A program made the position numbers and the translations under genes. A model generated the notes under the pieces. The model was not told where the DNA came from. It saw only the letters and a program-made list of their open reading frames with translations, and ran no database searches. Shown one piece after another: positions 12,841 through 13,059 of a DNA stretch of 64,000 nt. The stretch covers positions 399,280,001 to 399,344,000 of the forward strand of contig OZ024741.1 in assembly GCA_964016885.1 (NCBI GenBank). Reading direction: 5' to 3'. Origin of the DNA: Eledone cirrhosa. Its lineage: Eukaryota. Within the stretch, counting starts at the first letter, position 1. Every line of letters starts with the position of its first letter.

Positions 12841-13059
12841 ATAGGAGAAAGTATGACCTCGACGGCAGAGTTCAAGCCGTTTCGACGGCTATTTCTGGAC
12901 TCAGAAATAGTCCAGAAATAGTCCAGAAATAGCCGTCGAAACGGCTTGAGCTCAGCCGTCGGGGTCATACTTTCTCATATTAGCCACTCTACTACCCTAA
13001 GTATTGAGTACTCTGGTGCGTTATGGCCCATCTGATTCCTTACCACAACTCCTTCGTTA
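12841..13059 (+). mobile_element. TA-flanked fold-back element (family H1): hairpin plus ~85-bp tail
   Basis: Inverted repeat centred near 12900-12920; related copies at 19526, 49810, 60277 and 62529. Confidence 0.8.

Follow-up and report, generated by a model that had tools for sequence, protein, structure and literature searches.

Whether the short hairpins that recur beside TA microsatellites in Eledone cirrhosa are DNA transposons or products of a retroelement, and by which step such a hairpin is made, is the question raised by this locus. The window, that is, the whole stretch of 64,000 nucleotides that we analyzed (contig OZ024741.1, positions 399,280,001 to 399,344,000), is rich in TA microsatellites and harbors a non-coding repeat family, H1, whose members consist of a hairpin and a one-sided tail, are 180-220 bases long and lie embedded in TA microsatellites. 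An earlier note on this DNA had read them as nascent cDNA that repeatedly snaps back on the hairpin of a hammerhead ribozyme (HHR) and self-primes its second strand, giving products that look like MITEs and would be retro-derived. Their retro-derived, PLE-like rather than MITE-like character is supported by the lack of end-to-end inverted repeats and by a tail motif of Hydra type. Judged from its sequence, H1 is probably a DNA-transposon look-alike that is retro-derived and of Hydra-PLE-type origin.

The four TA-flanked hairpin-plus-tail copies listed in the earlier note were all recovered: A (12842-13059, plus strand), C (49810-50001, minus), D (60277-60474, plus) and E (62529-62704, plus). 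A fifth copy, B, is differently built, and all five have (TA)n on both sides, in which any target-site duplication would be hidden. In copy A, the outer arm (12842..12901, minus) carries the HHR-like 3' half in inverted orientation and terminates at end 1 of the element beside (TA)n. The centre (12902..12917, plus) is a tandem re-copy of the 11-nt unit AGTCCAGAAAT of the inner-arm start. The inner arm (12918..12979, plus) comprises a partial loop II, the 3' strand of stem II, GAAA, stem III, GTC/GGGG and 21 nt up to end 1, and the tail (12980..13059, plus) leads over about 80 nt from end 1 to end 2, with the terminal sequence CCTTCG-TTA(TA)n. Copy C comprises a tail (49810-49889), an inner arm (49890-49943) and an outer arm (49945-49998); it turns inside loop II with a 1-nt spacer and is a near-perfect palindrome. 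Copies D (hairpin 60277-60394, tail 60395-60474) and E (hairpin 62529-62624, tail 62625-62704) have the same layout, the inner arm of E beginning at GAAA/stem III. Across the hairpins, arms measure 41-62 nt and the tail, on a single side, 78-80 nt; the hairpins fold with z-scores of −12.6 to −20.4, equaled by none of 200 shuffles. BLASTN searches of the five named H1 regions against the window returned only one another.

The tails of A, C, D and E align without internal gaps and differ at 9-11 of about 80 letters. The termini are fixed as well as the tail length, the element ending in TAGG(A)... on one side and ...CCTTCG on the other. These two ends do not form terminal inverted repeats; the inverted repeat is internal to one of them.

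Just upstream of copy A, (GA)n and (TC)n(TA)n enclose a short stretch of unique sequence (12660-12750) that contains GAGTACTC and GCCGAAACCG and is possibly another PLE end remnant. Beside copy E, a perfect inverted repeat (62094-62510; 171 of 171 positions identical outside microsatellites) has arms of about 200 nt, microsatellite included, around a 17-nt spacer; it resembles flanking DNA duplicated in inverted orientation, though it may be an assembly artefact.

The arms follow the order AGCCGTC-GAAA-CGGCT-loop-(A/T)GCCG-TC-GGGG, with some arms decayed, or, read from TAGCCGTC, TAGCCGTC-GAAA-CGGCT-loop-AGCCG-TC-GGGG; the motif AGCCGTCG occurs twice in each. That they carry the 3' half of an HHR-like motif, as had been claimed, is borne out by a search with the half-hammerhead pattern CGAAAC-stem-TH, which gave nine matches in the window, seven of them in H1 arms, where 0.25 were expected by chance. 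The pattern agrees with the 3' half of the PLE hammerheads given in PMC4209133 and in File S2 of PMC8557442.

A whole HHR had been placed at 19624-19692, within copy B (19527-19708, mixed orientation), which consists of a reversed tail tip, 92 other bases and a single arm. The tail piece (19527..19553, minus) corresponds to the final 27-30 nt or so of an H1 tail and runs opposite to the arm. The middle (19554..19645, plus) is part of a separate repeat of lower depth; from it comes CCC-CTGAGAA-GCTCGGCTA, which forms the 5' half, non-canonical, of what looks like a hammerhead, and the arm (19646..19708, plus) reaches end 1 before (TA)n, with a predicted cleavage site after 19688. The claim holds as far as the fold goes: the minimum free energy structure is a three-way junction of stems I, II and III, although a weak one (z-score −1.6; 10 of 200 shuffles equal), and copy B is the only H1 copy with such a junction, GAAA and a UH cleavage site. 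It does not hold for the core, which at 19627-19633 reads CTGAGAA instead of the canonical CTGANGA with its C3-G8 pair; none of the read variants listed has a G at 19632. A PLE HHR that loses C3-G8 no longer cleaves (PMC11167929), and the RNA of 19618-19700 is predicted to lack self-cleavage activity. Rfam gave no match at the gathering threshold across the window and, around copy B, only chance matches driven by microsatellites.

In the reads, the 5' half of this ribozyme is shallow (about 155 reads in run X7). The middle segment (about 19555-19645) seldom runs on into the arm, with 24 reads at 19646, 13 of them with a different letter, whereas the arm has about 12,000. In run X4, two middle-segment pieces continue after 19644-19646 into other sequence that shares a few letters with the arm start. 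Given this rarity, the whole ribozyme is not the usual context of the H1 family, and copy B is either an unusual fusion between another repeat and an H1 arm or what is left, after decay, of the parent pLTR. Further CTGANGA...GAAA motifs lie at 19150-19225, 21033, 43915 (minus) and 13382; the one at 19150 satisfies a descriptor for type I hammerheads, its loop II being 47 nt long and its stem III reading CCATGG.

To compare the junctions, we mapped them onto the coordinates of copy B (arm at 19646-19708). All eight inner arm ends of the four hairpins fall within 19646-19668: about 19648 and 19646 in copy A, 19652-19654 around the 1-nt spacer in C, 19659 and 19650 in D, and 19656-19658 and 19668 in E. 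The turn points lie in loop II, in the 3' strand of stem II or in GAAA, and the four centres all differ from one another, in agreement with the earlier observation that junctions vary between copies at or near stem II. The centre of copy D contains a direct 11-nt copy of the stem III region. The combination of identical junctions and fixed termini had been named as the mark of true MITE amplification; half of it is present, in that the termini are fixed whereas the junctions differ.

Reads or contigs of four runs were compared over 19520-19714, run X1 as contig depths. The X1 depth is 1.84M at 19660-66, 0.49M at 19646-52 and 0.048M at 19639-45, and this drop across the very interval of the arm ends, a genome-wide signal, shows the clustering of junctions to be real. 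The arm is also deeper than the tail tip, with 2.0-2.4M versus 1.12M in X1 (about 2:1) and about 12,000 versus 8,900 reads in X7; the ratio is about 1.3:1 in the RAD runs, and X4 gives 41.8 versus 39.8 (9 records). The diversity of centres is read from the four window copies and the depth profiles, RAD fragments being cut at the AATT at 19655 (6,105 of 8,698 molecules in X7); none of the joints listed (15 of 25) crosses a hairpin centre. Some reads join tail pieces with 0-30 extra nucleotides directly to arm starts at 19646-19661 without a fold-back. They are rare (in X1, depth 8-103 compared to 1.1M) and may have arisen from hairpins by deletion. The consensus of loose ends before 19658 has an agreement of 0.72 in X7 and 0.64 in X8 and may be a mixture. 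Taken with the five tail tips in 64 kb, the X1 depths point to a copy number for H1 in the tens of thousands or above, a rough figure, as depth is not copy number. In a few reads, H1 copies stand in tandem with 5-21 nt of TA between them (joint 19714 to 19520), consistent with repeated insertion into one microsatellite.

The tail contains a stem-loop, RCTC-hairpin-NN-GAGYRCTY, with GAG 21-26 nt past end 1, that H1 shares with two other repeat families of the window, H2 and H3, and with one coding PLE family. In copy A it lies at 12986..13013 (plus) as ACTC-hairpin-TT-GAGTACTC and in the other H1 copies at 60401, 62631 and 49883 (minus), the last one decayed. Further matches are at 54607-54634 (H3), at 63663-63686 and 62795-62821 (H2), and at 58303-58327 and 44094-44118 (coding family); a shorter form is found at 17277, just past end 2 of the other coding family (14035-17490). 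The pattern RCTC-N10..14-NN-GAGBRCTY has nine matches in the window, where 0.57 are expected (order-2 Markov model, at most 4 in any of 100 simulations), a contrast that is optimistic because the pattern was drawn after the matches were known. All nine are in tails of TA-flanked families with HHR-like motifs (four in H1, two in H2, one in H3, two in the coding PLE family), and the stem covaries between ACTC/GAGT and GCTC/GAGC. A MAFFT alignment across families left the motif unaligned, and the anchored pattern was used in its place.

Inspecting the six Hydra consensus sequences of PMC8557442 (File S7) by eye, we found the stem-loop clearly in three (following the HHR in Hydra-2_Amil and Hydra-2_Ajap, preceding the ORF in Hydra-1_Ajap), partially in Crog and not in the other two; the literature searched, as far as it was available, yielded no description of it. 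Four other families of the window have 69, 88, 77 and 94 nt between end 1 and end 2, compared to 78 nt in H1. The stem-loop is the strongest tie of H1 to Hydra PLEs and a candidate cis signal for a PLE enzyme. BLASTN showed no direct homology between H1 and the window's Hydra-type PLEs; what they have in common is this stem-loop and the geometry of the ends.

The autonomous PLE with the H1 tail that the earlier note had anticipated was looked for and not found in the window, and no coding element with an H1 arm or tail was found in the window, in metagenome, prokaryote or viral contigs, or in the supplement of PMC8557442. A metagenome scan for the arm motif gave 11 loci, all GC-rich (61-72%) and without H1 context, and the scans of prokaryote genomes and viral contigs gave 0 matches. 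Of five H1 words, four were absent from the available supplement of PMC8557442 and the fifth had four matches, the two listed being unrelated coding sequence. We also rejected, by eye, an origin of H1 from a Pol III SINE: B-box-like words occur in variant arms only, and the A/B spacing is too short.

Members of the Hydra clade target (TA)n and carry hammerheads, and RWK, DKT and CxCX5C are marks of the clade (PMC8557442). The coding PLEs of the window (15133-17270, minus; 44239-45433; 56287-56730), in which RT precedes a GIY-YIG-like domain, show RWR, DKT and CxCX5C in the first frame and CxCX5C in the second. Pfam assigned no family to the four PLE frames and the 507 relatives found in homologue searches are mostly unnamed, so that the Hydra assignment rests on these motifs. 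Naiads were ruled out as their identity by the C-terminal position of the endonuclease-like domain.

One of these elements (14035-17490, minus) is near-complete between (TA)n runs, with RWR, DKT, the CxCX5C linker and, at the C terminus, a GIY-YIG-like domain. Its 189-nt pLTRs are 98% identical, a single frameshift separates the RT and endonuclease parts, the HHR core is a non-canonical CAGAAGA and the tail measures 94 nt. Fragments of it lie at 54779-54868 and 60514-60630, the former being a head-to-head pair of ends: a 49-nt end-1 piece and a 36-nt end-2 piece, non-overlapping, separated by 3-5 nt, flanked by (TA)n and forming no hairpin. The second Hydra-type family (44050-46649, 56287-58371) has a 3' UTR of about 1.4 kb and an HHR-like core CCGATGA with a long stem II. 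Its insert at 44050-46649 (plus) reads as a textbook inverted-pLTR insert: a 2.4-kb copy without tail ends at end 1 (46649), and a 209-nt inverted copy (44050-44258) bears the 77-nt tail at the 5' side.

H2 and H3 show related arrangements. H2 (63225-63745; 62737-62990, minus; 47420-47580, minus) has hammerhead-like motifs, CTGA(T/C)GA ... GAAA-TA(T/C)(A/G)TA-TA, with a long stem II and a palindromic stem III. The plus-strand hairpin at 63225-63745 has arms of about 200 nt, each with the whole CTGATGA...GAAA motif, and an 88-nt tail; in one H2 copy, the fold-back centre holds a 53-nt direct repeat. H3 (49640-49733; 58415-58505, minus; 54572-54722) consists of minimal type I hammerheads adjoining (TA)n, with the motif CTGA(G/A)GA ... 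GAAA CAATT(G/A) TT. One copy (54572-54722, minus), with a 69-nt tail, folds back inside the ribozyme, turning at GAAA beside the CAATTG palindrome of its own hammerhead.

How, then, could the H1 hairpins be made? The reading that we favor, at about an even chance, is that a Hydra-clade PLE enzyme nicks both strands of (TA)n and copies a short RNA end twice, and that the two cDNAs are joined head-to-head. It starts from the observed anatomy, fixed ends, clustered variable centres, mirrored arms, shared tail motif and two-end logic of the coding PLEs, and adds as inferred parts the RNA that serves as template and the enzyme that copies it, together with twin priming and a joining step. Two cDNAs would be primed, one per target strand, from two start sites: the tail tip (end 2) for the first, and end 1, which lies 78 nt further upstream, for the second. 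Both would halt near 19646, which may be the 5' end of a template of about 145 nt or a strong stop; to one of these points the shared inner boundary, which is present also without a hairpin. As both cDNAs would span the same segment, they could anneal only at self-complementary words, and end-joining there, accompanied by the loss of 0-22 nt and by short templated insertions, would account for the variable centres. The hammerhead half would contribute sequence microhomology only and have no catalytic part.

Two cDNAs on opposite target strands would account for the hairpins and copy B as well as for the inserts at 44050-46649 and 54779-54868, and since the latter two cannot arise from one cDNA copying itself, they favor this model. 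Further support comes from a purified PLE, which cuts and extends both strands and starts at two sites bounding the tail (PMC11167929). Ribozyme cleavage is dispensable for this enzyme, for which a dimeric form is predicted. A Hydra-PLE origin is supported by the Hydra motifs of the window PLEs, together with the (TA)n targeting and HHRs of that clade. As a more tentative extension, held with clearly less than even confidence, H1 may be a self-renewing, non-autonomous RNA of about 145 nt, comprising half of a dead hammerhead and a tail, which a Hydra-clade PLE dimer copies twice per insertion and thereby rebuilds the palindrome; the tail stem-loop would be a clade-wide cis signal that places the two RT starts, with tens of thousands of copies or more as the outcome.

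The similarity between the arms bears on whether both were made anew at each insertion. Within copies A, C, D and E, the arms differ by 5, 0, 2 and 3 letters, compared to 3-10 between copies (over 37-40 nt), of the 24 possible pairings the true one ranks first, and the four different variants of the outer 13-15 nt are each mirrored in their own copy, all of which favors re-copying or frequent conversion. At site 19682, however, where T makes up 16-29% of the depth, A and E share an asymmetry (outer T, inner A) that fits better with both arms having been inherited than with fresh copying from one template. This would suit an amplification of the whole unit, in which one or a few ancestral head-to-head Hydra PLE inserts serve as non-autonomous masters, a single pass copies the full hairpin-plus-tail transcript, the centres decay after insertion as in long palindromes and conversion keeps the arms identical. 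Such a process would also explain the fixed termini and constant tail, as well as the arm-to-tail ratio in X1 with its sharp inner boundary, and both deletion and duplication are known from the centres of palindromes. We nevertheless hold it to be unlikely, because the four mirrored outer-arm variants would demand frequent conversion, copy C retains its near-perfect palindrome and 1-nt spacer, and the outer ends stop at end 1 like simple PLE copies elsewhere (46649, 49733 and the 47420 region).

The centres bear on self-priming. Copies D and E switch strands at the self-complementarity ACGGCT/AGCCGT, and H3 turns at the palindromic loop of its hammerhead, as might be expected if a cDNA primed at the tail tip folds, self-primes the second arm, is cut or stopped at end 1 and is joined to the target, be it in the form proposed by the earlier note or in a variant at the template's 5' end. 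Mirrored arms would follow automatically; snap-back after cDNA synthesis is documented for the R2 protein (PMC11371274), and self-priming has been proposed for head-to-head PLE palindromes (PMC3846280). Priming on the ribozyme's own stem II, however, would leave loop II in sense orientation at the centre, which is the case in none of the four hairpins. In copies A and C the turn falls within loop II, part of which is present in both orientations, and no self-pairing is evident there. As loop II is absent from the centres and the parent ribozyme is non-canonical and rare, self-priming on stem II is unsupported. Snap-back in either form appears quite improbable, given that it cannot yield 44050-46649, 54779-54868 or copy B, requires an extra step for stopping at end 1 and leaves the near absence of the ribozyme 5' half from H1 against it. 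That H1 is a DNA-type non-autonomous element (a MITE or Helentron-like HINE) with a terminal palindrome, its hammerhead likeness arising by chance from AGCCGTCG, is very improbable: the high copy number, fixed ends, TA flanks, the paired AGCCGTCG motifs resembling subterminal binding sites and the absence of a canonical whole ribozyme would fit, but the two ends are not inverted repeats of one another, Hydra PLEs are matched by the tail motif and by the geometry of the two ends, and the centres vary while arms are mirrored per copy.

Inverted 5'-truncated copies and one-sided tails are standard in PLEs, and Hydra-clade members resemble H1 in both, in (TA)n targeting and, in several consensus sequences, in the tail stem-loop (PMC8557442). 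They differ in having a type I hammerhead near the 3' end, where H1 has only the 3' half and no ORF. The H1 tail of 78-80 nt compares with 30-40 bp described for PLEs generally, and in H1 both of the head-to-head copies are cut to about 40-60 nt at a near-fixed boundary. Four of the five H1 copies have the head-to-head inverted truncated copy with one-sided tail; the fifth is a tail tip and an arm in opposite orientation. Penelope elements of Adineta vaga share head-to-head inverted pLTRs, junction palindromes and a one-sided tail with H1, but their junctions are low-copy and on long elements, whereas H1 is high-copy and consists of the junction and the two ends only (PMC3846280). Non-LTR retrozymes are likewise short, non-coding, hammerhead-bearing and thought to be derived from PLE pLTRs (bioRxiv 10.64898/2026.07.22.740005; PMC7229834). 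They form head-to-tail tandems with a complete HHR per unit (bioRxiv 10.64898/2026.07.22.740005), while H1 is head-to-head and dispersed, without a complete core; head-to-tail units with a complete HHR were not encountered in H1, whose window copies are single. R2 snap-backs are retro-insertions with an inverted segment, but with sporadic junctions and without forming a family (PMC11371274).

Outside the PLEs and R2, the comparison extends to DNA-type elements and L1. MITEs and Helentron-associated HINEs are, like H1, short and very numerous, with a strong hairpin and TA or T-rich flanks; H1 differs by its variable centre, its PLE-type tail and the lack of terminal inverted repeats over the whole element. 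L1 twin priming also produces an inverted segment by target-primed reverse transcription, but inverts non-overlapping parts of one RNA, whereas the two copies joined in an H1 hairpin cover the same segment.

The novelty of H1 lies in being a high-copy family made of the junction and two ends of an otherwise known PLE structure; among the titles and abstract openings searched, none described a high-copy hairpin-plus-tail PLE derivative, although subscription journals, Repbase entries and preprint supplements may contain one. The origin of inverted pLTRs and one-sided tails in PLEs is described as open in PMC8557442, and PLE second-strand synthesis as untested in PMC11167929. H1 provides a natural library of PLE junction events, many copies of which could separate twin priming from self-priming, and the shared stem-loop offers a concrete candidate for a cis element and a marker for ORF-less Hydra derivatives. 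It also carries a warning, in that some invertebrate TA-flanked hairpins annotated as MITEs may be retro-derived.

Other repeats accompany these families in the window. A tRNA-like SINE family, GGATTGGCAGTATCGGTAGAG ... GAGTTCAAATCCC, is abundant (2573-3074, 34223-35025, 36853-37905, 38163, 48377, 60880), its copies frequently being paired in inverted orientation or clustered head-to-tail. At 22567-32732 (minus), beside (ATT)n runs, lie several non-LTR retrotransposons in a decayed state; they have RT and, C-terminally, a restriction-like endonuclease, and by motif we take them to be R4/Dong-like.
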